This document shows, one piece after another, positions 1-56,892 of a stretch of 64,000 nt of DNA (position 1 is the stretch's first letter; each line of letters starts with the position of its first letter). The DNA is from Escherichia phage vB_EcoM-172859UKE1. The notes beneath the pieces were generated by a model. The model searched no databases. It saw nothing but the letters and a program-made list of their open reading frames with translations, and was not told where the DNA came from. The translations under genes were made by a program, and so were the position numbers. Where the stretch lies: the sequence record MZ234025.1; one strand, given 5' to 3'.

Positions 1-981
1 ATGTTCAACGTTCAAATCAAAAAAGGTATCTATCGTAATAACGAAATCTCTGGTTCTTATGTCGCCACAAAGACCTGGTTCCCAGCAAAGCTTAATCCTG
101 AATGTTCCCACTTAGGTGATGGTAAAATTTTCGTTATGATTGATGGTTCTGAACGTGGAGTATGGGTCTTCAAATCAGACATCGTAATGGAAGGAGTTGA
201 GACATCGCCGGTTGCAGTTGTTGAAAGCACTGAAGATATGAAAACTCGTATCAACAAACGCTTTAAAGTAATGAACATGATGACGAATGGCATTATCGAT
301 GGCAAAATTCGTTCACTCATTATTTCAGGTGCAGCCGGTATTGGTAAGACGTATTCTCTGGATAAAGCACTTAATAATGCTAATGATAATGGTTTCATCA
401 AATACAAAAGCATTAATGGTAAAATCTCTGGTATTGGCCTTTACGAACAACTTTGGCTCAACCGTGATGCAGACAGCGTTCTCTTAATCGACGACGTTGA
501 CGTATTCTCAGATATGGACATCTTGAACCTTCTTAAAGCAGCATTAGATACCGGAGATAAACGCAAAGTTTGTTGGAGCACTGCGTCATCTTATCTCGAG
601 GATAAGGGTATCGATAAAGAATTTGAGTTTGAAGGTACTATCGTTTTCATTACAAACGTTGATATCGATAAAGAGTTAGAACGTGGTTCGAAACTTGCTC
701 CACACCTTCAAGCTTTAGTATCTCGTTCAGTGTATCTCGACCTTGGAGTACACTCTAATGAAGAGATTATGGTTCGAGTTGAAGATGTAATATTATCTAC
801 TGACATGATGCAGAAACGTGGTCTGACGGATGCAGAAACGTATAAAGCATTGTCCTGGATGAAGGCTAACGTATCTCGTCTTCGCAATGTATCATTACGT
901 ACGGCTCTTTATGTAGCAGATTTTATTTCAACTGATAAAGATGGTTGGGAGGAAATCTCTGAAGTAACTTTACTGAAATAA
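1..981 (+). CDS. P-loop ATPase-like protein; ATG sits at the window edge so the true N-terminus may lie upstream
   Basis: 326-aa ORF with Walker A-like GAAGIGKT and Walker B-like LLIDDVD; lies upstream of nrdC in the nrdC.x-type hyperplastic region. Confidence 0.55.
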   Translation: MFNVQIKKGIYRNNEISGSYVATKTWFPAKLNPECSHLGDGKIFVMIDGSERGVWVFKSDIVMEGVETSPVAVVESTEDMKTRINKRFKVMNMMTNGIIDGKIRSLIISGAAGIGKTYSLDKALNNANDNGFIKYKSINGKISGIGLYEQLWLNRDADSVLLIDDVDVFSDMDILNLLKAALDTGDKRKVCWSTASSYLEDKGIDKEFEFEGTIVFITNVDIDKELERGSKLAPHLQALVSRSVYLDLGVHSNEEIMVRVEDVILSTDMMQKRGLTDAETYKALSWMKANVSRLRNVSLRTALYVADFISTDKDGWEEISEVTLLK

Positions 982-2055: not shown

Positions 2056-3051
2056 ATGAGCATTACATCTGATGCGGTAAAACATGAAATTAACGGTTTA
2101 TGTGCTTCACAGATTAAAGTATGGTTTAAAGACCATAATGATCGCAGGGCACTTAATTATGAACAAATTGCTATCCAAGTTCATCAATTACTGACTAGTA
2201 AATTTGATTTTCATATGCCGTCTGAAATCTATACTAATCTACCGCGAGCGCTTATTAAAGCATGTAAAGGTTACGGAAAATCAATGGCCGATGGAATCTT
2301 CAGCGCGCTGAATAAACTTAACGTTCTGTCGATGATTAACTCTAACAACATCCTGCGTAATCTAGGACGTACTGATTTGTTCGGTCGTGAACAGTGTAAA
2401 ATGCCTTTGAAATGGATTATTGCTCATCTTAACGAGAACCAAACACGTTTTATGGCCGTAACAGCACGTTTACAAATGGGCCTAGATCGTCAGATGAACT
2501 TTAAAACTCATCCACGTTATTCAGGTTCAACTGACTTTTATAAATGTGAGCTTCAAAAGGTTGCAGGCAAAACTGTCTTAGTAGTTCGTGTAACGTTTGA
2601 AGGACGACGTCAAGGATATTTTGACCTAATTGGCTCTGGTCTTAAACATTGCGGATTTATCGACGAAGTTGATATCAAGCGAGACGGCATTGGATACCGT
2701 ATTGGGTATGTTTGTACTCTTAAAGAAGAGATTTCAGGACCAGCACCAGGACTAAAAGACGTTAGATATAAAGACGAGCTCATTGAAGAAATAAAAGAAG
2801 TTGAATATGATATCAACCAAGAAGATGCTCTTAAAGACCTTATTGACGAACTAAACCAAGACGTTATTCCGGTTCAGAAATTTGAATCAAAACATGCTGA
2901 GCAAATCAAATACTTTGAAGCTTTGATTAACGAACTTAATGTAACTATTCAACAGACTGATGATGAAATCTCACGATTAGCAGGCTTAAATGGTAAAAAT
3001 AAAACAGAACGAGCTAATCTTATTCAAGTAGTAAAACTTCTTAAGGAATGA
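2056..3051 (+). CDS. hypothetical protein with C-terminal coiled-coil-like region
   Basis: 331-aa ORF; heptad-like charged/hydrophobic C-terminus. Confidence 0.55.
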   Translation: MSITSDAVKHEINGLCASQIKVWFKDHNDRRALNYEQIAIQVHQLLTSKFDFHMPSEIYTNLPRALIKACKGYGKSMADGIFSALNKLNVLSMINSNNILRNLGRTDLFGREQCKMPLKWIIAHLNENQTRFMAVTARLQMGLDRQMNFKTHPRYSGSTDFYKCELQKVAGKTVLVVRVTFEGRRQGYFDLIGSGLKHCGFIDEVDIKRDGIGYRIGYVCTLKEEISGPAPGLKDVRYKDELIEEIKEVEYDINQEDALKDLIDELNQDVIPVQKFESKHAEQIKYFEALINELNVTIQQTDDEISRLAGLNGKNKTERANLIQVVKLLKE

Positions 3052-6510: not shown

Positions 6511-6681
6511 ATGCAAGTTAAATTATTGTACCGTTTATTAAAAAATGGCAAACATGATTGGTATTTGCTTATTAAAACCGATCCGAATTTTTTCTCTGGA
6601 CAACCATTTACAGTTCGTCCTACTAAACGTCAGCTTCGCAAAGCTAAACGTTCTCATCGTAACTTTTATAGAGAATATTGA
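6511..6681 (+). CDS. small basic hypothetical protein
   Basis: 56-aa ORF from ATG after GGAAGAG; overlaps an alternative frame, so uncertain. Confidence 0.3.
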   Translation: MQVKLLYRLLKNGKHDWYLLIKTDPNFFSGQPFTVRPTKRQLRKAKRSHRNFYREY

Positions 6682-6682
6682 T

Positions 6683-7096
6683 ATGAATATTTCTGAAACT
6701 CGCGGTAAATGGTTCAAGATCGTTAAAGAAGATGAAGAACTACAAGTCAAGTTTCCTGAATTAAAGAAAGATACGATCATCAAGGTAATTGGTACTACTA
6801 CCGAAGATGGTTATGGCGACCATGGCATTATCGAAGTGATGTTGAACACAGGTGAGAAACTTTGCATCTATGACCGTGATACTTCTCTTTGGTGCTTCTG
6901 GGAATCCCATTCAATAGATGAACTCGAAGAAATTGACCAAGTAGTTTGTGATGGTGGACTTGGCGAATTCGAAGGTGAACGTATTTCTTATGCTTTAGCT
7001 AAATTAGCCGGACAAGAAAATAACGACGGCTATGAAGGTAACCTGATGCAAGCAGCCGCAGAATACATTGAATATTTAGAAAGACGTTTAAGTTAA
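6683..7096 (+). CDS. hypothetical protein
   Basis: 138-aa ORF from internal ATG (MNISETRGKWF...) of the 6545..7096 frame. Confidence 0.45.
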   Translation: MNISETRGKWFKIVKEDEELQVKFPELKKDTIIKVIGTTTEDGYGDHGIIEVMLNTGEKLCIYDRDTSLWCFWESHSIDELEEIDQVVCDGGLGEFEGERISYALAKLAGQENNDGYEGNLMQAAAEYIEYLERRLS

Positions 7097-22122: not shown

Positions 22123-24834
22123 ATGAAAGAATTTTACTTAACGGTTGAACAGATTGGTGATTCAATTTTTGAACGTTACATCGATTCTAATGGCCGTGAA
22201 CGTACTCGTGAAGTAGAATATAAACCATCACTGTTTGCTCATTGTCCAGAAAGTCAGGCTACGAAATATTTCGATATCTACGGTAAGCCGTGTACTCGTA
22301 AGTTGTTCGCTAATATGCGTGATGCCTCCCAATGGATTAAACGCATGGAAGATATCGGACTTGAAGCACTTGGCATGGACGATTTCAAATTGGCGTATTT
22401 GTCTGACACTTATAACTATGAAATCAAATACGACCATACAAAAATTCGTGTGGCTAACTTCGACATCGAAGTAACATCTCCGGATGGGTTCCCTGAGCCG
22501 TCACAAGCAAAACATCCTATTGATGCTATCACCCATTATGACTCAATTGACGACAGGTTCTACGTATTTGATCTATTGAATTCTCCATATGGTAATGTAG
22601 AAGAATGGTCTATTGAAATCGCTGCTAAGCTTCAAGAACAAGGTGGTGATGAAGTTCCATCTGAAATTATCGATAAAATCATTTATATGCCGTTCGATAA
22701 CGAAAAAGAATTGTTGATGGAATATCTCAACTTCTGGCAACAGAAAACTCCTGTCATTTTGACTGGATGGAACGTTGAGTCATTTGATATTCCATATGTG
22801 TATAACCGAATCAAGAATATTTTTGGCGAATCTACTGCGAAACGTTTATCACCACATCGTAAAACTCGTGTTAAAGTTATCGAAAACATGTATGGTTCTC
22901 GTGAAATCATTACATTGTTCGGTATCTCTGTTCTTGATTACATTGACCTTTACAAAAAATTCTCTTTTACCAATCAACCGTCGTATTCTCTGGATTACAT
23001 TTCAGAATTTGAATTGAACGTTGGTAAACTGAAATATGACGGCCCTATTTCTAAGCTTCGTGAAAGCAATCACCAACGATATATTTCTTATAACATTATC
23101 GATGTGTATCGTGTATTGCAAATTGATGCTAAGCGTCAGTTCATCAACTTGAGCTTGGACATGGGTTATTATGCTAAGATACAGATTCAATCTGTGTTTA
23201 GCCCAATTAAAACATGGGATGCTATTATTTTTAATAGCCTTAAAGAACAAAACAAGGTGATTCCACAAGGTCGTTCGCATCCAGTTCAACCTTACCCGGG
23301 TGCTTTTGTTAAGGAACCTATTCCAAATCGATACAAATATGTGATGAGCTTCGACCTCACATCTCTGTATCCAAGCATCATTCGCCAAGTGAATATTAGC
23401 CCGGAAACAATAGCAGGAACGTTTAAAGTAGCTCCACTGCATGATTATATTAACGCAATCGCTGAACGTCCTTCAGATGTGTACAGTTGCTCTCCTAACG
23501 GCATGATGTATTATAAAGACCGTGATGGTGTAGTTCCAACTGAAATCACTAAAGTCTTTAATCAACGTAAAGAACATAAAGGTTATATGCTTGCGGCTCA
23601 ACGTAATGGTGAAATAATTAAAGAGGCATTGCATAATCCTAATCTTTCTGTTGACGAACCATTAGATGTTGATTATCGTTTCGACTTCAGTGATGAGATT
23701 AAAGAAAAGATTAAAAAGTTGTCCGCTAAGTCTCTTAATGAAATGTTGTTTAGAGCTCAACGTACTGAAGTTGCAGGTATGACTGCACAGATTAACCGTA
23801 AATTGCTCATCAACTCACTTTATGGTGCACTTGGCAACGTTTGGTTCCGTTATTATGATTTGCGTAATGCTACTGCAATCACAACATTCGGGCAAATGGC
23901 TTTACAGTGGATTGAACGTAAAGTTAATGAATACCTGAATGAAGTTTGTGGTACAGAAGGTGAAGCTTTCGTTCTTTATGGTGATACAGACTCCATTTAC
24001 GTATCTGCGGATAAAATTATTGATAAGGTTGGTGAATCTAAATTCCGTGATACTAACCATTGGGTAGACTTCTTAGATAAGTTTGCACGTGAACGTATGG
24101 AACCAGCTATTGATAGAGGTTTCCGTGAAATGTGTGAATACATGAACAATAAACAACACTTAATGTTCATGGACCGAGAAGCTATCGCTGGTCCTCCGCT
24201 TGGTTCTAAAGGTATTGGCGGATTTTGGACTGGTAAGAAACGTTATGCATTAAACGTGTGGGATATGGAAGGTACTCGTTACGCTGAGCCTAAACTCAAA
24301 ATCATGGGTCTAGAGACTCAGAAATCTTCGACTCCTAAAGCAGTACAGAAAGCTCTTAAAGAATGTATTCGTCGTATGCTTCAAGAAGGTGAAGAATCAT
24401 TACAAGAATATTTTAAAGAGTTTGAAAAAGAATTCCGTCAATTGAATTATATTAGCATCGCGTCGGTATCTTCTGCGAATAACATTGCTAAATATGACGT
24501 CGGTGGATTCCCTGGTCCCAAATGCCCGTTCCATATTCGTGGAATTCTGACGTATAACCGAGCTATCAAAGGTAATATTGATGCACCACAAGTTGTAGAA
24601 GGTGAAAAAGTATATGTTCTGCCTTTACGTGAAGGAAACCCATTCGGTGATAAATGTATCGCATGGCCTTCTGGTACTGAAATCACAGATTTAATTAAAG
24701 ACGATGTACTTCATTGGATGGACTACACTGTTCTCCTTGAGAAGACATTTATTAAACCACTTGAAGGATTCACATCAGCAGCTAAACTCGATTACGAGAA
24801 GAAAGCATCTCTGTTCGATATGTTTGATTTTTGA
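22123..24834 (+). CDS. 43: DNA polymerase gp43 (family B)
   Basis: 903 aa; exonuclease FDIE, polymerase motifs SLYPS and YGDTDS. Confidence 0.97.
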   Translation: MKEFYLTVEQIGDSIFERYIDSNGRERTREVEYKPSLFAHCPESQATKYFDIYGKPCTRKLFANMRDASQWIKRMEDIGLEALGMDDFKLAYLSDTYNYEIKYDHTKIRVANFDIEVTSPDGFPEPSQAKHPIDAITHYDSIDDRFYVFDLLNSPYGNVEEWSIEIAAKLQEQGGDEVPSEIIDKIIYMPFDNEKELLMEYLNFWQQKTPVILTGWNVESFDIPYVYNRIKNIFGESTAKRLSPHRKTRVKVIENMYGSREIITLFGISVLDYIDLYKKFSFTNQPSYSLDYISEFELNVGKLKYDGPISKLRESNHQRYISYNIIDVYRVLQIDAKRQFINLSLDMGYYAKIQIQSVFSPIKTWDAIIFNSLKEQNKVIPQGRSHPVQPYPGAFVKEPIPNRYKYVMSFDLTSLYPSIIRQVNISPETIAGTFKVAPLHDYINAIAERPSDVYSCSPNGMMYYKDRDGVVPTEITKVFNQRKEHKGYMLAAQRNGEIIKEALHNPNLSVDEPLDVDYRFDFSDEIKEKIKKLSAKSLNEMLFRAQRTEVAGMTAQINRKLLINSLYGALGNVWFRYYDLRNATAITTFGQMALQWIERKVNEYLNEVCGTEGEAFVLYGDTDSIYVSADKIIDKVGESKFRDTNHWVDFLDKFARERMEPAIDRGFREMCEYMNNKQHLMFMDREAIAGPPLGSKGIGGFWTGKKRYALNVWDMEGTRYAEPKLKIMGLETQKSSTPKAVQKALKECIRRMLQEGEESLQEYFKEFEKEFRQLNYISIASVSSANNIAKYDVGGFPGPKCPFHIRGILTYNRAIKGNIDAPQVVEGEKVYVLPLREGNPFGDKCIAWPSGTEITDLIKDDVLHWMDYTVLLEKTFIKPLEGFTSAAKLDYEKKASLFDMFDF

Positions 24835-24874: not shown

Positions 24875-25510
24875 ATGAAAACTACTCCTATTACTATCGC
24901 TATTGACGCAATCGTAAAACAAGCTTCATCTCTTGCCACTATGGCTAAAGTAATTAGTCAAAACCCTGCTCGTTATAATGCTATTCTAGAAACTCTTCGA
25001 CGCCCTGGACTTAGTAATTATGAAAGCCGGGTAATTATTACAGGTGTTGGTAAGAATGCTAATATCGCAACTAAAGCTTCCGAGACTTTTGCTTCACTAG
25101 GTATTCCTAGCATGTATTTGAATACCGGGCATTATTCTCATGGTGACGCAGGATTTATTGCACCTAATGATGTATTAGTTCACATCAGTCGTTCTGGTAA
25201 GACTGAAGAAATGATAGGTGTTGCTAAACATCTTCGTATGATTCGTCCTCAGGTTAAACAGATTCTGTTACATTGTAACCCTGACATTCCACAAGAATAC
25301 GAAGCTCTTTTTGATTATACGTTCTGTACCGGTATCGCGGTAGAAGTTGACGAGAACTCTTTAGCTCCGACAATGTCCACTACATTGTTGTTAGCGCTTA
25401 TCGATACGTTCGCTATCAACCTTTCGTCTGAACGTGGATTTACCTCTAATGATTTCCTTAAGTTCCATCCAGGCGGTGCACTAGGTGCCATGTTACGAGG
25501 CGAACAATGA
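24875..25510 (+). CDS. SIS-domain sugar-phosphate isomerase (KdsD/GutQ-like arabinose-5-phosphate isomerase-like)
   Basis: 211 aa; ...TGVGKNANIATKASETFASLGIPS..., YSHGDAGF, ISRSGKTEE and C-terminal HPGGALG resemble SIS domain of A5P isomerases. Confidence 0.75.
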   Translation: MKTTPITIAIDAIVKQASSLATMAKVISQNPARYNAILETLRRPGLSNYESRVIITGVGKNANIATKASETFASLGIPSMYLNTGHYSHGDAGFIAPNDVLVHISRSGKTEEMIGVAKHLRMIRPQVKQILLHCNPDIPQEYEALFDYTFCTGIAVEVDENSLAPTMSTTLLLALIDTFAINLSSERGFTSNDFLKFHPGGALGAMLRGEQ

Positions 25511-25650
25511 AAGCAATAACAATAGGACTTTTACTATTGATGCTTGTCATGACTATCTACTGGAGCTTAACGGCTCCGGTAATGATTCCAACACTTGTAA
25601 TTGGATGGATTATGATTGGACTACAAGCAAAGTATGAATGCTTTAACTAG
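25507..25650 (+). CDS. possible small hydrophobic peptide
   Basis: 47-aa ORF with two hydrophobic stretches, ATGA-coupled. Confidence 0.3.
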   Translation: MKAITIGLLLLMLVMTIYWSLTAPVMIPTLVIGWIMIGLQAKYECFN

Positions 25651-25691
25651 AATAGTGTACAATACTCCTACTTACCAATGAGGACTTCAAC

Positions 25692-27377
25692 ATGAAAAAA
25701 GCTGTTATTCTTGGTGCTGGATTGGCAACTCGTTTATATCCAATAACGCATCATATTCCTAAGGTGCTTGTTAACTATAAACAAGACACTATTCTGAGCA
25801 ATTTGTATACAATTTATTCTGACCTTGGCGCAGATGAAATTATTGTAGTAGTTCATTCAAAATTTGCTGAAACTGTTCGAGCTTATTGTGAGCAAGAAGG
25901 GTTCAATGTGACTATTCGTACAGTTGATGAAGCGTATGGTTCTGCTTATGCTCTTGCTAAATTACACAAAGATTTAGACGGCCATAATGTAATTGTTAAC
26001 TGGTGTGATATTATTCCTGATTTTGGTTCATGGTCTTGGAATGTTAACGCAATCTATGTTAAGGGTGACGAATGTCGATATAATTTCGACGGTGAAAATA
26101 TCACTAACGTAGGTTCAACAGGTGGTAATGTTGTAGGAATTTATCAGTTCAAAGACTGGGAATTCTATATGGGTTCTACCGATGAGGAAATTCATGAATA
26201 CTGCAAAGGACGTGATTTCGTAGAATTCCTTTACAGCGGCGCATTCAATAAATCAGAGCTTATGAATATCATCGACCTTGGTGATATGCCTAAACTTGAA
26301 AAGGCCCATGAAGTTCGTGAACTGAACCGTAGTTTTAATGCAGTTGAAATTGGCGAAGAAACTGTAACTAAATTCGCATTAACCGAACAGGGTCGAGCTC
26401 TTCAGAAAGATGAGATTTCGTGGTATTTGAAAGTGAAATCAGATTCAGTTCCTCAGTTAGTTTCTGTTAATGAAAATAACTTTGAAATGGAACGCATTAA
26501 AGGTAAGCCGGCATTTGAATATATTAAATCAAAATCAAGTCTTGCTCGTCCACAAATTGTTGATGCAATTTTAGATGCACTGAAATTCAGCACAGACACT
26601 TATTTTGTAAGTCCTGAAACTGTTCGTCGTGATTTCACTAAAGAATTCTATACGAAAGTTATTGATCGTTGTGAAAGCATTCAACCATTGATTGATTCAT
26701 TTGGTAAAATCACACACGTGAACTACACTAAGATTGGACGTCTGAAGCCAATGCTGAAACAAGCTTTAGAACACCTTATTCGTTATCATAACCGTTCTCA
26801 GGGACAGTACTCTGTTATTCATGGTGACCCGAACTTCAGTAATACTATGATTACTGATAACGGCGAAGTCAAGTTTATCGACCCTCGTGGATATTTTGGT
26901 GAAACCAAGATTTACGGGCCAAAATTGTATGATGAAGCTAAAGTGCTTTATGCTGTTTCAGGTTATGATGAATTCAATGCTAATCCGACCTGGGGGCAGT
27001 TTACTATTGATGAAACAACTTGTAATGTGACTATTAACATCAATCCATTAGTTTACAAATATGGAAAGATGAGTTCGTTTAACGAGTATCATCATTTGGC
27101 AGTGGCAATTATCTGGATTGCATTAGGTGGTTATTTCAAGAATAATCCACTTAAAGCGGTAGCCGCATATTATAAAGGTATGGAACTTCTGACTAAGCAA
27201 TTACGTAACATGGGCCGTGTACTTCAAGACGGCTCTATTAGTTATGACGTAGCAGAACCTGTAACGGCTACTCTGATTACAAAAAATCCTGGTAAATGGG
27301 TACTAACTGATAAAGAAACTGGTGTTTCCTATCGTCCAATCGGTGGCGATATCACTCATCAATGGGAACGAATCTAA
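25692..27377 (+). CDS. bifunctional sugar-1-phosphate nucleotidyltransferase / kinase-like protein
   Basis: N-terminal AVILGAGLATRLYPIT (NTP-transferase G-x-G-x-R); C-terminal HGDPNFSN and IDPRG resemble APH/anomeric sugar kinase catalytic motifs. Confidence 0.7.
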   Translation: MKKAVILGAGLATRLYPITHHIPKVLVNYKQDTILSNLYTIYSDLGADEIIVVVHSKFAETVRAYCEQEGFNVTIRTVDEAYGSAYALAKLHKDLDGHNVIVNWCDIIPDFGSWSWNVNAIYVKGDECRYNFDGENITNVGSTGGNVVGIYQFKDWEFYMGSTDEEIHEYCKGRDFVEFLYSGAFNKSELMNIIDLGDMPKLEKAHEVRELNRSFNAVEIGEETVTKFALTEQGRALQKDEISWYLKVKSDSVPQLVSVNENNFEMERIKGKPAFEYIKSKSSLARPQIVDAILDALKFSTDTYFVSPETVRRDFTKEFYTKVIDRCESIQPLIDSFGKITHVNYTKIGRLKPMLKQALEHLIRYHNRSQGQYSVIHGDPNFSNTMITDNGEVKFIDPRGYFGETKIYGPKLYDEAKVLYAVSGYDEFNANPTWGQFTIDETTCNVTININPLVYKYGKMSSFNEYHHLAVAIIWIALGGYFKNNPLKAVAAYYKGMELLTKQLRNMGRVLQDGSISYDVAEPVTATLITKNPGKWVLTDKETGVSYRPIGGDITHQWERI

Positions 27378-27763
27378 TGCACCGTGTAGAAAACATGCTT
27401 AATCTTTGTTTTGATGTCGATGATTGTATAACAGAGTGGAATAACAATCGTGATTACGTGAACTTCAAACCAGACGTCGAAATGGTGTCTGCCATTAATG
27501 CTCTGTATGATGCAGGGCATACCATAACGCTTTACACTGCTCGCGGTATGAAGTCAGTAGGTCCTGGACGTATAGCAATTGACATTCTCCCAAGTCTGAT
27601 TCAGAACTTGGCAAACATTGGCTTGAAGTACCATAATTTGCTAACACATAAACCAGTATATGATTGGATTATCGACGACAAAGCTATGCGTCCTGACGAA
27701 TTCAAAGCTCTTATGAATAAAGGCGAATTCGAAACATTTAAACCATATAAACCGAATCTATAA
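27377..27763 (+). CDS. HAD-superfamily phosphatase
   Basis: FDVDDCIT (DxDxT motif I) near N-terminus; ~128 aa, size of KdsC/GmhB-type phosphatases; TAATG coupling. Confidence 0.7.
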   Translation: MHRVENMLNLCFDVDDCITEWNNNRDYVNFKPDVEMVSAINALYDAGHTITLYTARGMKSVGPGRIAIDILPSLIQNLANIGLKYHNLLTHKPVYDWIIDDKAMRPDEFKALMNKGEFETFKPYKPNL

Positions 27764-27820
27764 TAATTTAAGTAAGACATGCAAAAACCATCGCATCAAT
27801 TAACGCGAGACGCAAAATAA

Positions 27821-28981
27821 ATGAATACTTTTAAAATCGGAACGAATTTTGATTTAGCTCTTCTTGATAAAATCGTAGAGCTCAATAAAACTTATCCTAA
27901 TAGCTTGATAAATGAAGTATACGGCTCTACAAGAGAAATGGCTTTTGTAGCAGCCAGACCTGATTTTAGGCTTCCTGACGTTGACAAAAAGATGTTAGAA
28001 GATTACGTTAAACGTTGTAACGAATTAGGTATTTGCTTTAACTATACACTCAACACGATAAATCCTGGTTCAAAAAGAGAACTAGTTGAGTGGAAGAAGA
28101 AAGCTATTCAGGATTATGTTCAGTATCTTTGGTCAATAGGCGTATGGCGTATTACTATCGCTAACCCTGTTGTTATGGAAATTGTTCGTGAAGTCAATAA
28201 AGACATTGAGATTGAAGTTTCAACAATTCTACATGTCGATGCTGTAACTCAAATCAAATACTTGCATGACCAATATAATATCAAAAAGGTCTGCTGTGGA
28301 ATTCATAAGAACCGTTCAGTTTCTTTCCTGAAGCGTGCAGCAGAGTTTTGCAATAAGAACAATATAATATTTGAAGTTCTTGTAAATGAGTTCTGTTCTA
28401 ATGCTGGTAAAGGGTATACAACACATTGTAGCTATCGTGACTCTTGCTATATTTTCCATAGTACTGATGTTACAGCTGATGATGCTAAATCCTTAAACGG
28501 ATATCCTATGCAGCACTGTATTAAAGCTCGTGATACAGACCCATTTAACTGGTTGAGAACTCGTTTTGTTCGTCCTCAAGATTTGAAACTTTATAATGAT
28601 ATTGGTATCACTCAATTCAAAGTTTCAGGACGTACAGGTAGCACAGACTACATTTTGAAAGTTCTTGAAGCATACGCTTCTGAAAAGTTTGAAGGTAATT
28701 TGTTAGAACTGTGGAAGCCTTTAGAGACTATTTTCACTCTTGAAAACGAAACTGAGTTTTCACATACAGTAAATATTGAAACCTCTTTGTTAGATGGCTT
28801 TTTAGAAAAAAGGTGGTTCAGACATCCAGATTTCGATTGTGCTAATGAAATCTGCGGGACGACGTGTACATATTGTGAAAGATATTATAAACGTCAATTA
28901 TCTAAAAACGGGTTAGCAGAAAACTCTATATCTATTATTGATATAACTAACTCTGATGACGCTTTGAGGTACCCGGAATGA
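27821..28981 (+). CDS. U32-family-like Cys-rich protein (possible Fe-S enzyme)
   Basis: 386 aa; FNYTLNT, EVLVNEFCS...HCSYRDSC, FKVSGRTGS resemble U32 motifs; C-terminal CxxxCxxxCxYC. Confidence 0.55.
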   Translation: MNTFKIGTNFDLALLDKIVELNKTYPNSLINEVYGSTREMAFVAARPDFRLPDVDKKMLEDYVKRCNELGICFNYTLNTINPGSKRELVEWKKKAIQDYVQYLWSIGVWRITIANPVVMEIVREVNKDIEIEVSTILHVDAVTQIKYLHDQYNIKKVCCGIHKNRSVSFLKRAAEFCNKNNIIFEVLVNEFCSNAGKGYTTHCSYRDSCYIFHSTDVTADDAKSLNGYPMQHCIKARDTDPFNWLRTRFVRPQDLKLYNDIGITQFKVSGRTGSTDYILKVLEAYASEKFEGNLLELWKPLETIFTLENETEFSHTVNIETSLLDGFLEKRWFRHPDFDCANEICGTTCTYCERYYKRQLSKNGLAENSISIIDITNSDDALRYPE

Positions 28982-29260: not shown

Positions 29261-29977
29261 ATGGGAAAACATAACACAATGAAATATATCAAAGCCGCAG
29301 ATTTTCAAACCGCATTTAAAGCAGTCAATCGTGAAATTTTAGAAAACCCGGAATTCGTAACTGATTCTCGTATTGGACGTTGTAATGAAATTGGGTCTAT
29401 GACAGTAGTTGTTGACACTCCATCATCATTCAAAATGACCGACCCACGTATTAACCGCATCTCTTATGAATATGCCGAAGACTTCTGGAAGTTTATGATT
29501 TCTGGTGGTACCAACGCAGAAGAAGCGTTTAAGGCATATCCTAATGTCGCTAAATTTATTTCTAAACCAAAATCAGATGTTTTGCCGGCGAACTTCAACA
29601 CTTTCTATGGTCCTCGCATTGCGGCCCAATTACCAGCTCTTCTAAAAGAACTTAAAGAGAAGCCTAACTCCCGAAGAGTTGTGTTCCAAATTCTAGAAAG
29701 TTCTGATCAGGCTTTGCTTGATTCAGACGAAACGCTTGAATATCCATGTACTGACTCAGTGACTTATTATATTCGTGATGGTAAGCTTTATACCCACTGT
29801 CATATGCGTTCTCAGAACTGTGCTGTTGTTATGCAGTTGGATTTTTATCTCCAAGGAAAATTACTTCATTATATCGCTAACGAATGTGGTGTAGAAGTTG
29901 GTGATTATACTCATACCATGGTAAGTGCCCATGTGTTTGAACGTGATTTTGATTATGTTAAAGGATTCCTTGACTAA
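29261..29977 (+). CDS. 42: dCMP hydroxymethylase gp42
   Basis: 238 aa thymidylate-synthase-fold protein; catalytic region EYPCTDSVTYYIRDGKL...HMRSQN parallels T4 gp42; lacks TS PCH motif. Confidence 0.85.
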   Translation: MGKHNTMKYIKAADFQTAFKAVNREILENPEFVTDSRIGRCNEIGSMTVVVDTPSSFKMTDPRINRISYEYAEDFWKFMISGGTNAEEAFKAYPNVAKFISKPKSDVLPANFNTFYGPRIAAQLPALLKELKEKPNSRRVVFQILESSDQALLDSDETLEYPCTDSVTYYIRDGKLYTHCHMRSQNCAVVMQLDFYLQGKLLHYIANECGVEVGDYTHTMVSAHVFERDFDYVKGFLD

Positions 29978-33040: not shown

Positions 33041-34483
33041 GTGGTAGAAATTATTTTGTCTCATCTAGTATATGACCAGGCTTATTTTTCTAAGGTCTGG
33101 CCTTATATGGATTCTGAGTATTTTGAGCGTGGACCGGCAAAAAACGTCTTTAAAATTATAAAGAGCCACGTTAACGAATATAATGCAATGCCATCTATCA
33201 ATGCATTAAAGGTGGCTTTAGATAACAGTTCTTTAACTGAAGCCGAATATAAAGGAACTTCAGACCTAATTGAAAAATTGGCTGATACTCCTGAAGACCA
33301 CGAATGGTTGGTTAAAGAAACTGAGAAATATGTCCAGCAAAAAGCGATGTATAATGCTACATCCAAAATCATTGAGATTCAGTCTAATGCTGAACTACCT
33401 CCAGAACAACGTAACAAGAAAATGCCTGACGTAGGAGCTATTCCTGATATTATGCGTCAAGCACTTTCAATTTCGTTCGATAGTTATGTTGGACATGACT
33501 GGATGGAAGACTACGAAGCACGCTGGCTTTCTTATCTAAATAAAGCACGTAAGGTCCCGTTCAAATTAAACATTTTGAATAAAATCACTAAAGGTGGTGC
33601 TGAAACAGGTACACTGAATGTTTTAATGGCTGGTGTTAACGTTGGTAAATCTTTAGGCCTTTGTTCACTCGCTGCAGATTATCTTCAAACAGGTCATAAT
33701 GTTCTTTATATTTCCATGGAAATGGCTGAAGAAGTTTGTGCTAAGCGTATAGATGCAAACATGCTTGACGTATCACTCGATGATATCGATGATGGTAACG
33801 TATCTTATGCTGAATATAAAGCCAAGATGGAAAAATGGCGTTCAAAATCCACATTAGGACGTTTAGTAGTTAAACAGTATCCTACTGGTGGAGCTAATGC
33901 TAATACATTTCGTGCATTGCTTAATGAGTTAAAACTTAAGAAGAACTTTGTGCCATCTGTAATCATGGTTGATTACTTAGGTATTTGTGGGTCTTGTCGT
34001 ATCAGAGTTTACACTGAAAATAGCTACACCTTAGTTAAAGCTATCGCAGAAGAACTTCGTGCATTAGCAGTAGAATCTGAAACAGTTCTATGGACTGCAG
34101 CTCAAGTAGGACGTGCAGCATGGGATGCTTCGGATATGAACATGAGCGATATTGCAGAATCAGCAGGTTTACCAGCAACAGCAGATTTCATGTTGGCCGT
34201 AATTGAAACCGAAGAACTTGCACAAGCTGAACAACAACTTATCAAACAAATCAAATCACGATACGGTGATAAGAATAAGTGGAATAAATTCCTGATGGGT
34301 GTACGTAAAGGCAACCAGAAATGGATTGAGATTGAGCAAGAAGGCATGAACACACCTAACACAGTAAATGAAAACGCAGGTGCTCAGATGCGTCAGGCAG
34401 AGGTGAATCGTACGGAACGCGTAGGTAAAGCCAAAGCAACACGTGCTGACCTAGATAGCTTAGCCAATGAGTTAAAATTTTAA
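33041..34483 (+). CDS. 41: replicative DNA helicase gp41 (DnaB-like), GTG start
   Basis: 480 aa; MVEIILSHL..., Walker A GVNVGKSLG; first codon GTG 4 nt after AAGGAG. Confidence 0.95.
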   Translation: MVEIILSHLVYDQAYFSKVWPYMDSEYFERGPAKNVFKIIKSHVNEYNAMPSINALKVALDNSSLTEAEYKGTSDLIEKLADTPEDHEWLVKETEKYVQQKAMYNATSKIIEIQSNAELPPEQRNKKMPDVGAIPDIMRQALSISFDSYVGHDWMEDYEARWLSYLNKARKVPFKLNILNKITKGGAETGTLNVLMAGVNVGKSLGLCSLAADYLQTGHNVLYISMEMAEEVCAKRIDANMLDVSLDDIDDGNVSYAEYKAKMEKWRSKSTLGRLVVKQYPTGGANANTFRALLNELKLKKNFVPSVIMVDYLGICGSCRIRVYTENSYTLVKAIAEELRALAVESETVLWTAAQVGRAAWDASDMNMSDIAESAGLPATADFMLAVIETEELAQAEQQLIKQIKSRYGDKNKWNKFLMGVRKGNQKWIEIEQEGMNTPNTVNENAGAQMRQAEVNRTERVGKAKATRADLDSLANELKF

Positions 34484-34571: not shown

Positions 34572-34946
34572 ATGAATATGTCTCAAGCAATTTTTACTGC
34601 AATCACCGAAAACACAACTGTTGAAGTAGTTTCTCCACTGGCAACCTACGTTATTCTTGCTCCTAAAACTATTGTATCTCGTATGGAAAACACAGGCAAA
34701 CGTATCGTACAAATAGTTGGAGCCGGAAATCAAAAACTTGATTATCTACGAACCATCAAAGCTTATGAACATTTCCAACTCGAAAAAGGTTCTCCTATTC
34801 AGGTAGAACTCGTAAATGGTGATATCGTTCGAGCAATGTTCCATCATTTCTATGCATTGAATGACCCATCTAAAGCGGTTCGTTTAATTGCATACGATGC
34901 AAACCAAAACGAAATCAACGCAGATATATCTAAATTACGTTTTTAA
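34572..34946 (+). CDS. hypothetical protein
   Basis: 124-aa ORF after AGAGGAAAACATT RBS. Confidence 0.5.
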   Translation: MNMSQAIFTAITENTTVEVVSPLATYVILAPKTIVSRMENTGKRIVQIVGAGNQKLDYLRTIKAYEHFQLEKGSPIQVELVNGDIVRAMFHHFYALNDPSKAVRLIAYDANQNEINADISKLRF

Positions 34947-35001: not shown

Positions 35002-35319
35002 ATGAAAACCATCGATTGTAAAGCAGAATTTAAGATTTTTTATCACGGTTCAAGTAGTTCAGCTAACATCGAAAACATGCTTTGTCCTCCTGAGGAAACA
35101 GGAGTTCTGTCTGAAACTGGACGTAAGAAAAACTTGGATCGTGTATTCTTTACTGAAGATATAGGTTTAGCAAAGATTTATGCAGGACGAGCAGCACGCT
35201 CTTATGGAGGTGAACCACGTCTCTATCGAGTAATTTCTCCGGTAGATGTAGTTCAAATGAATGATACTAAAGGTGCTACAGTTTATCACGCTGAATGGGC
35301 ATTTTGCGAGGAAATATGA
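35002..35319 (+). CDS. hypothetical protein
   Basis: 105-aa ORF. Confidence 0.5.
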   Translation: MKTIDCKAEFKIFYHGSSSSANIENMLCPPEETGVLSETGRKKNLDRVFFTEDIGLAKIYAGRAARSYGGEPRLYRVISPVDVVQMNDTKGATVYHAEWAFCEEI

Positions 35320-35504
35320 GCAAATTAACTAAAGTTACTTTTATTGGCTGGTTTAAAAATGATAATATGTTCACTAAAGATATCATGTTATCAGGCGACC
35401 GTGAAGAAATCGAGTGGGTTGCGGTACAACTCGCTGAAGTGAACAGTGCACTTGTTAAAGCATTTCTTAATGATGAGAAAGTTTTCGAAGCAGATTTTCG
35501 ATAA
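35316..35504 (+). CDS. possible Dmd-like antitoxin
   Basis: 62-aa ORF (MSKLTKVTFIGWFKNDNMFTK...) next to gene 41 region where T4 has dmd; resemblance from memory only. Confidence 0.45.
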   Translation: MSKLTKVTFIGWFKNDNMFTKDIMLSGDREEIEWVAVQLAEVNSALVKAFLNDEKVFEADFR

Positions 35505-35517
35505 TTTTAAAATAACT

Positions 35518-35547
35518 GTTTACAAGCACCACATACTGTGTTACTAT
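35518..35547 (+). promoter_or_regulatory. early promoter GTTTAC / TACTAT
   Basis: GTTTAC 35518-35523, 18-bp spacer, TACTAT 35542-35547. Confidence 0.55.
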
Positions 35548-35575
35548 CTTTCTATCAACTACAGAGGAAATTGAA

Positions 35576-35944
35576 ATGAAAAAATTAATCGCTTTAGCAA
35601 TGGTATTTGGATTAACCGGATGTGGTGCCCATGGCTTTATCCCTAATAACGTTGGCCAACTGATTTACAATCCGAATGTTAAACAATATGAACAACCTAA
35701 AGTTGAAGTGGAAGACCCGGTTACTGTAGGTAATCGAATGATTCAAGCTGATGCTCATGCTCAACGTTATCGTGATTCTGATACTGTAGCATTGTCAAAA
35801 GAACAACGCGTTAAAGAACATTGCTTACAGGCTACTGAAATCGCATTCATTCGCTATGTTGAAACAACCGGTAAAGAGCCTACCCAGAAACAAATCGCGA
35901 ATAACTACGTCCAGTGTATTGAACGTTTAAACAAATTTAATTAA
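35576..35944 (+). CDS. lipoprotein
   Basis: Signal peptide with lipobox LTGC (MKKLIALAMVFGLTGCG). Confidence 0.6.
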   Translation: MKKLIALAMVFGLTGCGAHGFIPNNVGQLIYNPNVKQYEQPKVEVEDPVTVGNRMIQADAHAQRYRDSDTVALSKEQRVKEHCLQATEIAFIRYVETTGKEPTQKQIANNYVQCIERLNKFN

Positions 35945-35947
35945 TTG

Positions 35948-35977
35948 GTTTACACCAAAGTTAAAACAAGATACTAT
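35948..35977 (+). promoter_or_regulatory. early promoter GTTTAC / TACTAT
   Basis: GTTTAC 35948-35953, 18-bp spacer, TACTAT 35972-35977. Confidence 0.5.
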
Positions 35978-36005
35978 AAACATAACAAATCAAGAGGAAA
36001 TTAAC

Positions 36006-36254
36006 ATGGAATTATTCGTAGCTAGTTCAGTAGCAGTTTTAATCGCAGGTATTGGTTCAATCATCATTTACATGTTGCCTTGGGTAATCGCACTTATTCG
36101 TGGCACAAAAAGCACAACAGCAATCTTCTTCGTATCTTTACTCTTTAACTGGACGATGGTTGGTTGGATTGGAACTTTAATTTGGTCTATCGTTGCCGAA
36201 AAGAAATCTGCTCTACAGCCTCAACAAGTAATTATTATTCGCGAAAAAGAATAA
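36006..36254 (+). CDS. superinfection immunity protein (Imm-like membrane protein)
   Basis: 82 aa, two TM helices; YMLPWVIALIRG...NWTMVGWIGTLIW fits Imm superinfection-immunity family pattern. Confidence 0.6.
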   Translation: MELFVASSVAVLIAGIGSIIIYMLPWVIALIRGTKSTTAIFFVSLLFNWTMVGWIGTLIWSIVAEKKSALQPQQVIIIREKE

Positions 36255-36259
36255 ACTTG

Positions 36260-36294
36260 TTTACATTATAGATGGACTATAGTATAGTAGTCCT
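36260..36294 (+). promoter_or_regulatory. early promoter GTTTAC / TATAGT with inverted repeat GGACTA/TAGTCC
   Basis: GTTTAC 36260-36265, TATAGT 36284-36289. Confidence 0.55.
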
Positions 36295-36317
36295 ATCAAA
36301 TCAACTAAGGAGTTAAA

Positions 36318-36611
36318 ATGAAAAAGTTATCATTGGCAGCAATCTTACTTGCAGTATCATGTGCACCGGCTCCAGTTACGGCAGGTTATGATAAAGACCT
36401 CTGTGAGTGGTCAATGACTGCAAATCAAGAAGATGTTGAACAACAAATCTTCTCTGATATCATGAACATCACTAAACGAGACCGTCCTAATATGGTTAAT
36501 AAAGTTGTTGAACAACTTAAGTCTGGCGGTAACATGCAGTACAACTATGTTTTGTATTGTGACCCTAATTTCGATAACAAAGATATCGTAACCGAAATCA
36601 CAGGTGAATAA
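36318..36611 (+). CDS. secreted protein, possible Spackle-like
   Basis: 97 aa with cleavable signal peptide; size and locus match T4 sp, sequence identity not verified. Confidence 0.45.
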   Translation: MKKLSLAAILLAVSCAPAPVTAGYDKDLCEWSMTANQEDVEQQIFSDIMNITKRDRPNMVNKVVEQLKSGGNMQYNYVLYCDPNFDNKDIVTEITGE

Positions 36612-36612
36612 C

Positions 36613-37263
36613 ATGATTTATTACATGCACAAAAATGCGCCATTTAAATATGGTAAATTTCCTAATGCGCAATGTTATAATATAACGCCGAATGAAAATA
36701 ATAACGGATATCATATTGGTGTAATTTTTGTAATTGTTAAAGATAACGAAATCGTTGCCTGGGCAGATTTTAAAGGTACAACATATGATGTTAATCCTGT
36801 GCCTTTCACATATTACAATATAATGGATTTGGCATATGATTATAATTGGTTTAATCATGACGCGTTGGTTCATATTGAAGGTGTAGGATTTGACATCTCC
36901 TATTCTAGCTATTCATTATGTCCTATGAGCCGAGCTCACGGTAAAGATGTATCATATCTTTCAATTCGGAAACGTGTAAACTTCAAACGTAGTACAGAGT
37001 ATGTTGGTGGACTCTTTGTTAAAGATAATAAAATAACCCGTATTAGTTATCCTCTAAGTGTAGGTCAAAAAGATGTTGATGTTGATTTAGACTTAACTGA
37101 AAATAACATTAATCATATTGCTTCTGTATATTTTGATATCGATGAAAAAATTGTAGTGTGTGGATACGAATTACCACCTGAAGAAAAGGCTGAAGCAATT
37201 GAAGTCGAATTAGAAATTTCTGTTGATGACCAAATATTTAATGCATTTATGAATCGAGGTTAA
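36613..37263 (+). CDS. hypothetical protein
   Basis: 216-aa ORF from ATG after AGGTGA (track start is GTG). Confidence 0.5.
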   Translation: MIYYMHKNAPFKYGKFPNAQCYNITPNENNNGYHIGVIFVIVKDNEIVAWADFKGTTYDVNPVPFTYYNIMDLAYDYNWFNHDALVHIEGVGFDISYSSYSLCPMSRAHGKDVSYLSIRKRVNFKRSTEYVGGLFVKDNKITRISYPLSVGQKDVDVDLDLTENNINHIASVYFDIDEKIVVCGYELPPEEKAEAIEVELEISVDDQIFNAFMNRG

Positions 37264-37988: not shown

Positions 37989-39011
37989 ATGGCTGAATGG
38001 ATAGATAATGAATTTGCTTATCGCGCGTTTTCTCACCTACCTCGTTTTAGACAAATCAATAATTCAAGCACATTTAAATTAACATTTCGATGTCCAGTTT
38101 GTGGCGACTCCCAGACAGATGCAATGAAAGCTCGCGGATGGTATTATGGCGGTACTCCTGGTAATGTACATTGTTATAATTGCCAATACCACAATACAAT
38201 TTCCGGATACTTAAAAGAGTATGATGAAGAGCTTTATCGCGAATATCTAATGGAAGTTCGTAAAGAAAAAGCTAGAATGGAACCAAAGATTGAAAAGGTT
38301 CCTGAACATAAACCAGAACCGGAGAAAAAGACTATAAATTCTTTGCCGTCTTGTTCTCGTCTGGACAAGCTGCCCGAAGAGCATCCTATTGTGAAATATG
38401 TTAAGTCTCGGTGTATTCCTAAAGAATCGTGGAACAGATTATGGTTCACATTAGAATGGCCTAAATTGGTCAACAAGATTCAACCTGGTACGTATAAGAA
38501 AGAGATTCCCGAACCACGTTTAGTGATTCCTATTTTTAATAAAGACGGGAAGGCCGAGTCATTCCAAGGACGTGCACTTCGTAAAGATGCTCCTCAGAAA
38601 TATATCACTATTAAAGCGTTTGAGTCTGCAACAAAAATTTATGGTGTTGAACGTGTTAAGGAAGGAGACGTCTGGGTAATGGAAGGTCCTATTGATAGTT
38701 TATTCATACCCAATGCAATCGCTATTACAGGCGGCTCAATAGATTTAGATGTGGTACCATTTAAAGAACGTCGGGTATGGGTAATGGATAATGAACCTAG
38801 GCATCCAGATACTATAGCTCGTATGAAGCGATTAGTTGATGCAGGCGAACGTGTCATGTTCTGGGACCGAGCTCCATGGAGATCAAAGGATGTGAATGAT
38901 ATGGTAATGAAAGAAAATGCAACACCACAAGAAATTTTAGAATACATGAAACAGAATATTTCAAGTGGGTTGCATGCTAAAATGAGATTATCTCATTATT
39001 CTAAGATTTAA
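37989..39011 (+). CDS. 61: DNA primase gp61
   Basis: 340 aa; zinc ribbon FRCPVCGDS...HCYNC and ...WIDNEFAYRA... closely match T4 gp61. Confidence 0.95.
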   Translation: MAEWIDNEFAYRAFSHLPRFRQINNSSTFKLTFRCPVCGDSQTDAMKARGWYYGGTPGNVHCYNCQYHNTISGYLKEYDEELYREYLMEVRKEKARMEPKIEKVPEHKPEPEKKTINSLPSCSRLDKLPEEHPIVKYVKSRCIPKESWNRLWFTLEWPKLVNKIQPGTYKKEIPEPRLVIPIFNKDGKAESFQGRALRKDAPQKYITIKAFESATKIYGVERVKEGDVWVMEGPIDSLFIPNAIAITGGSIDLDVVPFKERRVWVMDNEPRHPDTIARMKRLVDAGERVMFWDRAPWRSKDVNDMVMKENATPQEILEYMKQNISSGLHAKMRLSHYSKI

Positions 39012-39205
39012 ACAAGCCCTATAATAGCAAAGGCCAAATCGACTACAGTATCCAATGGAACAGAAGGAACTATAATACCATTAGCAACTAACAATGGTGC
39101 GATACCGAAGTTCCATGAAATAATGCCACCTACAACTATTGCGGCGATAGCAGTTTTCTTTTTATTGCCTTTAATAGCATTGATTAACGATGGAAGTTTA
39201 AACAT
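39008..39205 (-). CDS. small membrane protein (convergent with gene 61)
   Basis: 65-aa hydrophobic ORF on - strand with strong AAGGAG RBS; 3' end overlaps gene 61 stop. Confidence 0.5.
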   Translation of the reverse strand: MFKLPSLINAIKGNKKKTAIAAIVVGGIISWNFGIAPLLVANGIIVPSVPLDTVVDLAFAIIGLV

Positions 39206-56856: not shown

Positions 56857-56892
56857 GTTTACAACTAAGTAGGACTATGATATAGTAGTCCT
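56857..56892 (+). promoter_or_regulatory. early promoter GTTTAC / TATAGT within inverted repeat AGGACTA/TAGTCCT
   Basis: GTTTAC 56857-56862, 18-bp spacer, TATAGT 56881-56886. Confidence 0.55.

Follow-up and report, generated by a model that had tools for sequence, protein, structure and literature searches.

Orthologues of T4 imm.1, imm, and sp lie side by side in an RB69-like Mosigvirus, with imm.1–imm away from its T4 locus

Spackle (Sp, gp61.3) and Imm of bacteriophage T4 are characterised superinfection-exclusion proteins. The mature form of T4 Spackle (Gly23–Glu97) has a C29/C81 disulfide, and contacts gp5 through S32-M33-T34-A35, Q37, and N76 (Shi et al., PMC7677548). T4 Imm is reported to bind gp29, the tape measure protein, at its helical-bundle domain, to be weakened in exclusion by the substitutions R33A and W50A, and to exclude T4 when expressed alone from a plasmid (preprint 10.64898/2026.03.06.709160). 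The corresponding genes occupy two places in the T4 genome, in the orders 43–imm.1–imm–42 and dmd–61.4–sp–61.2, with imm.1–imm about 6 kb from sp; at its stop codon, T4 imm overlaps with 42.1, a small hydrophobic ORF. The role of Imm.1 in exclusion "remains to be proven", and the protein has been scored as absent from the RB69 group (PMC5885020). In the reference genome of RB69 (NC_004928, RB69p035–p039), the genes are labelled in the order dmd–61.4–imm.1–imm–sp–61.2.

The DNA analysed here (the window) is a stretch of 64,000 nucleotides from Escherichia phage vB_EcoM-172859UKE1 (sequence record MZ234025.1). A query of 1.7 kb around imm.1–imm–sp found matches in 334 phage records, 155 of them at 95–99% identity, with Escherichia phages JS09, F31, and PhAPEC2 as the top matches (98%). 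By classification, the near relatives belong to Straboviridae, Tevenvirinae, genus Mosigvirus (RB69 group), and the source of the window, a T-even phage of RB69/JS09 type, is a member of the same genus. A preliminary description of the window had pointed to three small ORFs, which are present on the + strand at the positions given in Table 1 for imm.1, imm, and sp (hereafter ORF122, ORF82, and ORF97, respectively, for the encoded proteins). It had further placed them side by side, upstream of the primase gene; the three genes are indeed adjacent to each other, but are not directly upstream of primase, three genes (adfA/61.2, 61.1, and a 164-aa ORF) intervening. As found by tblastn across the window, imm.1, imm, and sp are present in a single copy each, all at 35576–36611.

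Table 1. Features around imm.1–imm–sp in the window, listed in local order, and genomic contexts of imm.1–imm in metagenomic relatives
Feature	Position	Strand	Description
Gene 41, helicase	33041–34483	+	First in local order
Two function-unassigned ORFs		+	Between gene 41 and dmd
dmd	35316–35504	+	Precedes imm.1 promoter
Early promoter motif before imm.1	35518–35547	+	GTTTACA-N17-TACTAT; identical in RB69
imm.1	35576–35944	+	122 aa, predicted lipoprotein, Pfam DUF5481
Early promoter motif before imm	35948–35977	+	GTTTACA-N17-TACTAT; inside 61-bp spacer
imm	36006–36254	+	82 aa, superinfection immunity inner-membrane protein
Early promoter motif before sp	36259–36288	+	GTTTACA-N17-TATAGT; overlaps inverted repeat GGACTA...TAGTCC
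sp	36318–36611	+	Spackle, predicted periplasmic gp5 tail lysozyme inhibitor, 97-aa precursor
adfA/61.2	36613–37263	+	AdfA, anti-DarT factor A; directly after sp
61.1, then 164-aa ORF		+	Between 61.2 and gene 61
Gene 61, primase	37989–39011	+	
Metagenomic L009, L010, L011 (two lineages)			imm.1–imm in T4-like 43..42 context
Metagenomic L008 (one lineage)			frd.3-family gene upstream of imm.1–imm

Identity and predicted targeting of the three proteins

ORF97, previously noted as a signal-peptide protein of Spackle size, is Spackle itself. It shares 64 of 97 residues with T4 Sp (66% identity; E = 2e-49), scores 141.1 bits against the Pfam profile PF25676 (T4_Spackle; cut-off, 27) over residues 1–96 of 96, belongs to phrog_1586 in PHROGs ("spackle periplasmic"), and matches PDB entries 6x6o and 7cn6, with the chain of the latter aligning from residue 23. 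The N-terminus, MKKLSLAAILLAVSCAPAPVTA followed by GYD, consists of MKK, a hydrophobic core, and small residues at positions −3 and −1, and constitutes a predicted Sec signal peptide; the predicted cleavage between Ala22 (in VTA22) and Gly23 would yield a mature protein of ~75 aa. Cys29 and Cys81, and the residues given above as making contact with gp5 in T4 (S32-M33-T34-A35, Q37, and N76), are all identical in ORF97. In addition, the position of the gene relative to dmd and 61.2 is the same as that of T4 sp.

ORF82, for which a two-TM Imm pattern had been proposed, is identical to T4 Imm (UniProt P08986) at 53 of 83 positions (64%) over the full length (E = 6e-37), and its C-terminal tail, QVIIIREKE, also matches that of the T4 protein. 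Its score for PF14373 (Imm_superinfect) is 56.9 bits versus 27.9, and it is a member of phrog_1039 in PHROGs ("immunity to superinfection"). Two hydrophobic segments are seen on the Kyte–Doolittle scale with a 19-residue window, at residues 1–34 (peak, 2.51) and 40–59 (peak, 1.62), and Arg32 and Trp49 correspond to Arg33 and Trp50 of T4 Imm. Small membrane proteins of many unrelated phages are grouped in the broad family PF14373, and the 82-aa protein might instead be an Imm-family paralogue with another membrane function, such as that of a holin- or antiholin-like protein. This is highly improbable in our judgement: the protein is collinear with T4 Imm from end to end, including the C-terminal tail, retains the equivalents of R33 and W50 as well as the upstream partner imm.1, and is the sole PF14373 member in the window and in each of the related genomes listed. 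A second imm at the 43–42 locus was also considered, and rejected because tblastn of the window and Pfam scans of the interval show none. In every phage record listed, imm is found at one place per record, and on these sequence comparisons ORF82 is the only imm orthologue of the phage.

ORF122 aligns with T4 Imm.1 over residues 3–118, that is, over the full length (33% identity; E = 3e-19), scores 38.2 bits against PF17578 (DUF5481; cut-off, 27), and has an RB69 orthologue annotated as imm.1. Because of this full-length alignment, the scoring of Imm.1 as absent from the RB69 group (PMC5885020) is contradicted. The N-terminus of ORF122, MKKLIALAMVFGLTGC, has a basic start and a hydrophobic core; its lipobox, LTGC16, is canonical, and position +2 is occupied by Gly, in keeping with the predicted lipoprotein that the preliminary description had recognised. 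The Imm.1 family is tiny, with eight representatives at 50% identity, several of which are fragments, among 1.84 billion proteins; these were obtained by an exhaustive profile search, a word-indexed search having returned only three matches. Among isolated phages, the family occurs only in Tequatrovirus and Mosigvirus. The lipobox is present in four of five lineages, all with a residue other than Asp at +2 (LTGC16 in the window, LAGC15 in T4, and TTGC and LVGC in homologues P0005 and P0008, respectively), and is lost in homologue P0002; in the lineage without the lipobox Cys, Imm.1 would be soluble in the periplasm. Because the +2 residue of ORF122 is Gly and not Asp, the E. coli sorting rule predicts anchoring to the outer membrane, where Imm.1 is probably held by its lipid moiety.

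The motifs YNPxxKxY and AYRxS are common to the Imm.1 proteins, and two cysteine residues (C83 and C114), both located on two confidently predicted C-terminal helices, are invariant in the family. An AlphaFold2 model of Imm.1, built from a five-sequence alignment, showed a mean pLDDT of 65, with only the C-terminal helical hairpin being confident, and gave no fold match in the PDB by Foldseek (best E = 2.9). Neither PADLOC nor NCBIfam gave a meaningful hit for the Imm.1, Imm, or Sp protein; for Imm.1, there was none in PADLOC, and those in NCBIfam were at chance level, far under the cut-offs. Searches of Pfam, PDB, and PADLOC detected no sequence or fold similarity of Imm.1 to known exclusion or defence proteins, and a search of the CRISPRi-ART T4 paper yielded nothing relevant on imm.1. 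Separately, a relationship of ORF122 or ORF82 to T4 gp61.4 was considered and rejected, gp61.4 being a soluble, unrelated protein of 85 aa.

All three proteins score above the curated cut-offs of their Pfam families (DUF5481, Imm_superinfect, and T4_Spackle), and the lipobox, the two hydrophobic stretches, and the signal peptide are all seen in the sequence. With targeting signals and family hits both present, the objection that the preliminary description had raised against itself (no such signals, or no family hits) therefore falls. The observation of three envelope-targeted small proteins is confirmed, and their reading as exclusion genes is supported, in the case of Imm and Sp by their orthology to the characterised exclusion proteins of T4.

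Early promoter motifs and the relocation of imm.1–imm

A general sigma-70 scan gave 24 sites versus 15 expected and was not discriminating; therefore, a phage-specific pattern, GTTTAC-N18-TANNNT, was used. This pattern occurs at 15 sites in the window, all on the + strand, versus 0.99 expected, and no shuffle reached 15. Three consecutive motifs precede imm.1, imm, and sp, their −10 hexamers ending 29–32 nt ahead of the respective start codons, and a ribosome-binding site (GAGG or AGGAG) is found before each of the genes. When compared with the consensus of the T4-group early promoter cassettes, TTTACW-N17-TAYWAT (PMC4122927), the motifs of imm.1 and imm fit exactly (TTTACA-N17-TACTAT), and that of sp (TTTACA-N17-TATAGT) has one mismatch. 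The earlier proposal that each gene has its own early promoter agrees with these putative promoters, which are strong matches to the T4-type motif. A short inverted repeat, GGACTA-N8-TAGTCC, is evident at the sp promoter only; the repeat search revealed no strong hairpins at the imm.1 and imm promoters, and no intrinsic terminator was found in the region 35500–36700. The sp promoter falls in a class in which the −10 box is covered by a short inverted repeat; two further members lie in the window, at 56857 and 57369, and another precedes T4 dmd. The sp promoter is closer to these promoters than to the T4 sp promoter, with which it shows 40% ungapped identity. Promoter similarity is modest, at 58–69% ungapped identity to the nearest T4 promoter versus 31–64% to the other motif sites in the window.

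The preliminary description had also noted that the Imm-like gene lies at a locus different from that of T4 imm, and this holds: the gene is found between 43 and 42 in T4 and between dmd and sp in the window. The 43–42 interval of the window (24875–28981) contains no imm, and encodes a SIS-domain isomerase, a nucleotidyltransferase/kinase, and a U32-family protein. The sugar-nucleotide genes in this interval are what we take to be RB69-type genes for hydroxymethylcytosine arabinosylation. An orthologue of 42.1 has been left behind at 25507–25650, where its overlap with the SIS-gene stop codon has the same ATGA arrangement as in T4 imm–42.1. In Gaprivervirus VR7, Dhakavirus IME341, and Jiaodavirus GF, imm is located just after 43 or before 42, without imm.1. 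Because T4 and these three other genera keep imm at 43/42, the 43–42 position is ancestral and the Mosigvirus position derived.

At the position found in the window, the 18 nt upstream of imm.1 (TTTAAAATAACTGTTTAC) exactly correspond to the T4 61.4/sp junction, the leader of imm.1 (CTATCAACTAC) matches the T4 imm.1 leader, and the promoter region of imm.1 thereby looks chimeric. Early-promoter cassettes (PeSLs) have been shown in T4-type phages to mediate the excision and insertion of small gene modules in the form of mini-circles (Arbiol et al., Comeau et al.; PMC2839356, PMC4122927). An apparently chimeric imm.1 promoter together with an sp promoter unlike that of T4 is what recombination between such cassettes would leave, and it is most likely that imm.1–imm moved in this manner (PeSL shuffling), a route that is plausible rather than proven. 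No convincing direct or inverted repeats flanking the imm.1–imm module were found beyond the promoters themselves. PeSL shuffling alone leaves the additional promoter in the 61-bp spacer between imm.1 and imm unaccounted for; in the metagenomic relatives, the two genes are separated by gaps of 7–14 bp, without a promoter-bearing spacer. The relocation provides a clear natural case of an early-gene module that passed from one promoter-flanked site to another, and fits the PeSL model of T4-type genome shuffling.

Proposed mechanism and meaning of the clustering

Taking the gene identities, the promoters, and the gene order together, we are largely confident that the segment represents the Mosigvirus orthologues of imm.1, imm, and sp, which would be expressed early and confer exclusion through Sp and Imm, the imm.1–imm pair having been relocated by cassette recombination. 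In this mechanism, the activities of which are modelled on the T4 experiments, expression of imm.1, imm, and sp would begin at once upon infection, with a separate sigma-70-type early promoter for each gene. Sp would be exported via Sec and cleaved after Ala22. When a T-even phage superinfects, the periplasmic Sp would bind and inhibit the lysozyme domain of gp5 at the tip of its tail, which could then not pass through the cell wall (as described for T4 in PMC7677548). Imm, located in the inner membrane, would bind gp29 of the incoming phage, and no DNA conduit would then be formed (as described for T4 in preprint 10.64898/2026.03.06.709160). Imm.1 would be exported and lipid-anchored, our best guess being an accessory function in the envelope that is linked to Imm. 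For the history of the locus, imm.1–imm would have left the 43–42 locus and landed in the promoter in front of sp. RB69-like phages accordingly carry both exclusion layers of T4, of which Spackle would act on the tail lysozyme and Imm on the tape-measure conduit. Given the sequence divergence of 34–36%, the specificity of exclusion could differ from that of T4, and the divergence of Imm.1, Imm, and Sp could be relevant to the partial exclusion known to occur between RB69 and T4.

It is a separate matter whether the side-by-side arrangement of these genes has a functional meaning. The region between 41 and 61 is a hyperplastic early region that collects accessory genes, and imm.1–imm may have settled there by chance; Sp and Imm would then be neighbours that act independently, without forming a true cassette in regulation or mechanism. 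Such adjacency without functional meaning is a serious possibility, to which we give slightly less than even credence. T4 imm and sp work from loci ~6 kb apart, and imm.1, imm, and sp each have a putative promoter and would therefore not be one operon. The neighbouring dmd and 61.2 (AdfA) are unrelated counter-defence genes, and the presence or absence of 61.4 is polymorphic at the same spot, which points to ongoing shuffling. Against this stands the fixation of the imm.1–imm–sp arrangement in ~150 Mosigvirus genomes, which is equally compatible with common descent; moreover, a chance neighbourhood would leave the gene identities undisputed and deny only that the clustering matters.

A closer relationship may be considered for Imm.1 and Imm. 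Imm.1 could be a third exclusion component and a partner of Imm, being a lipoprotein or periplasmic protein that either acts on the incoming tail tip, or positions or stabilises Imm. In all five divergent lineages found (31–47% identity to the window protein), imm.1 is immediately upstream of an Imm_superinfect gene, and the genomic setting of the pair is of three kinds (43..42, frd.3-side, and dmd..sp). The numbers of Imm and Imm.1 hits agree (501 versus 502 in Tequatrovirus, and 153 versus 154 in Mosigvirus), and Imm.1 is a predicted exported protein with two invariant Cys. However, imm.1 and imm with gaps of only 7–14 bp would co-migrate even without a functional link, Gaprivervirus, Dhakavirus, and Jiaodavirus have imm but no imm.1, and Imm alone excludes T4 (preprint 10.64898/2026.03.06.709160). 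One Imm.1 homologue is without the lipobox Cys, and the poor structural model (pLDDT 65), the lack of a fold match, the lack of a PADLOC hit, and the purely chance-level NCBIfam hits also weigh against such a partnership. On balance, a partnership of Imm.1 with Imm in exclusion is possible, although we consider it unlikely. The broader suggestion that Imm.1 is an overlooked third player in exclusion or envelope protection, coupled to Imm, and that imm.1–imm is one mobile two-gene module, is likewise put forward as a tentative one. In Mosigvirus, where the pair has come to lie next to sp, adjacent genes encode proteins whose predicted locations comprise the outer membrane, the periplasm, and the inner membrane. 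A hint of a functional link may be seen in Imm.1 being a conserved, apparently exported protein that is never apart from imm among the placed lineages. T5 Llp and the phi80 Cor-type exclusion lipoproteins act by blocking the outer-membrane receptor of the phage; as small early phage lipoproteins, they offer a conceivable analogy for Imm.1.

Comparison with the RB69 and T4 loci

The locus in the window closely resembles that of RB69 in having the same genes in the same order and on the same strand, with the three intergenic promoter regions being essentially identical, and more than 150 Mosigvirus records match at 97–98% nucleotide identity. It differs from the RB69 locus in that the 70-aa gene 61.4 between dmd and imm.1 is missing by a deletion of ~206 bp, which leaves dmd directly followed by the imm.1 promoter. 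The deletion is common to the window, F31, PhAPEC2, and others (aligned as a single BLAST piece), and 61.4 is kept in RB69, pEK20, and JS09. At the corresponding positions, many related records are annotated as "immunity protein", "superinfection immunity protein", and "spackle periplasmic protein". The arrangement is thus already known, having been annotated in RB69-like genomes since 2003 and being alike in ~150 other genomes, and is nothing new.

In comparison with T4 Spackle (gp61.3; PDB entries 6x6o, 6xc0, and 7cn6), the window protein has the same length of 97 aa, the same signal-peptide register, the C29–C81 pair, and the same location upstream of 61.2, and differences lie in the promoter and in the upstream neighbour, which is 61.4 in T4 and imm in the window. 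The likeness to T4 Imm.1 consists in the lipobox position, the YNPNVKxY and AYRxS motifs, the two conserved Cys, and the place upstream of imm; the T4 protein is 125 aa in length versus 122 aa in the window, the identity is only 33%, and the extra Cys pair of T4 (C33/C44) is missing in the window protein. Imm resembles its T4 counterpart in the 64% identity, the two hydrophobic stretches, the conservation of R33/W50, and the presence of imm.1 directly upstream. Its genomic setting is different: imm.1–imm lies between dmd and sp in the window and between 43 and 42 in T4, the 11-bp gap without a promoter between T4 imm.1 and imm is replaced by a 61-bp spacer with its own promoter motif, and imm, followed by the small 42.1 ORF in T4, is no longer so followed in the window.

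Junctions and small ORFs of the early region

At window positions 35505-35517, the dmd stop is joined to the imm.1 promoter, with gene 61.4 (70 aa) being absent and about 206 bp deleted. In RB69, pEK20, and JS09, by contrast, 61.4 sits between dmd and imm.1. Gene 61.4 is a presence/absence polymorphism inside Mosigvirus, which is also visible in the nucleotide BLAST of the imm.1-imm-sp region as matches in two pieces versus one. Separately, tblastn with T4 gp61.4 matches its FIKFAVRPTKRQIRQ segment, at 67% identity and E = 0.001, to an 18-aa stretch at 6607-6660 (plus strand, within ORF 6545-7096). Elsewhere in the early region there may thus be a distantly related paralogue, or a motif that the two proteins share.

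At the junction of sp and 61.2/AdfA (36609-36615), the sp stop TAA occupies 36609-36611 and the ATG of 61.2/AdfA lies one base further on, at 36613, with no promoter motif between the two codons. This spacing, together with the lack of an intervening motif, suggests co-transcription, and the anti-DarT factor gene probably shares its transcript with spackle. The ORF listing puts the AdfA ORF start further upstream, at GTG 36604, but translation is unlikely to begin there.

Two conserved ORFs of 124 and 105 aa, neither with a Pfam or NCBIfam match, occupy a position at which T4 has no genes; the stop of the latter overlaps the dmd start. The 65-aa ORF, for which no family match was obtained, is the sole minus-strand gene in this early region.

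Features of the gene 43-42 interval and early region, and the metagenomic Imm.1 homologue
Feature	Position	Strand	Remarks
DNA polymerase (gene 43)	22123-24834		left border of interval
Gene set	24875-28981	+	SIS-domain isomerase; 561-aa nucleotidyltransferase + kinase-like protein; 133-aa ORF; U32-peptidase-family protein
47-aa hydrophobic ORF	25507-25650	+	orthologous to RB69ORF054c and to T4 '42.1', sharing 52% identity with the latter
Gene 42 homologue	29261-29977		right border of interval
124-aa ORF	34572-34946	+	phrog_10668; conserved; between gene 41 and dmd
105-aa ORF	35002-35319	+	phrog_2110; conserved; between gene 41 and dmd
65-aa ORF	39008-39205	-	two hydrophobic stretches; immediately after primase; hypothetical in pEK20 annotation
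P0002	L008 718-1086		Imm.1 homologue, 47% identity; metagenomic contig SRR30535852_365571

Lipobox variation in Imm.1 and Spackle

In P0002, the lipobox Cys is replaced by Phe (LAGFSAHA), so that this homologue is probably soluble in the periplasm. Its gene follows a Phage_FRD3-family gene, and 7 bp beyond it an Imm gene begins, with a 49-aa ORF after that; by this order, the contig is a third genomic context of the imm.1-imm pair.

T4 Spackle (2259-2552, minus strand, in the T4 sequence L002) carries a lipobox-like LASC15 at residues 12-15 within its signal peptide, whereas the window orthologue has AVSC15, a misfit to the lipobox pattern. Because published structures have Gly23 as the mature end, this contrast is probably without consequence.

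The gene 43-42 interval

The place of imm.1-imm in T4 is taken in the window by the gene set at 24875-28981, probably the cluster for hydroxymethylcytosine sugar modification of the RB69 type. The 42.1 orthologue is missing from the ORF listing, made with a 60-aa minimum. In T4, the ATG of 42.1 overlaps the imm stop as ATGA; in the window, the ORF has this overlap with the SIS-domain gene's stop codon instead, so 42.1 remained at the 43-42 locus when imm.1-imm departed.
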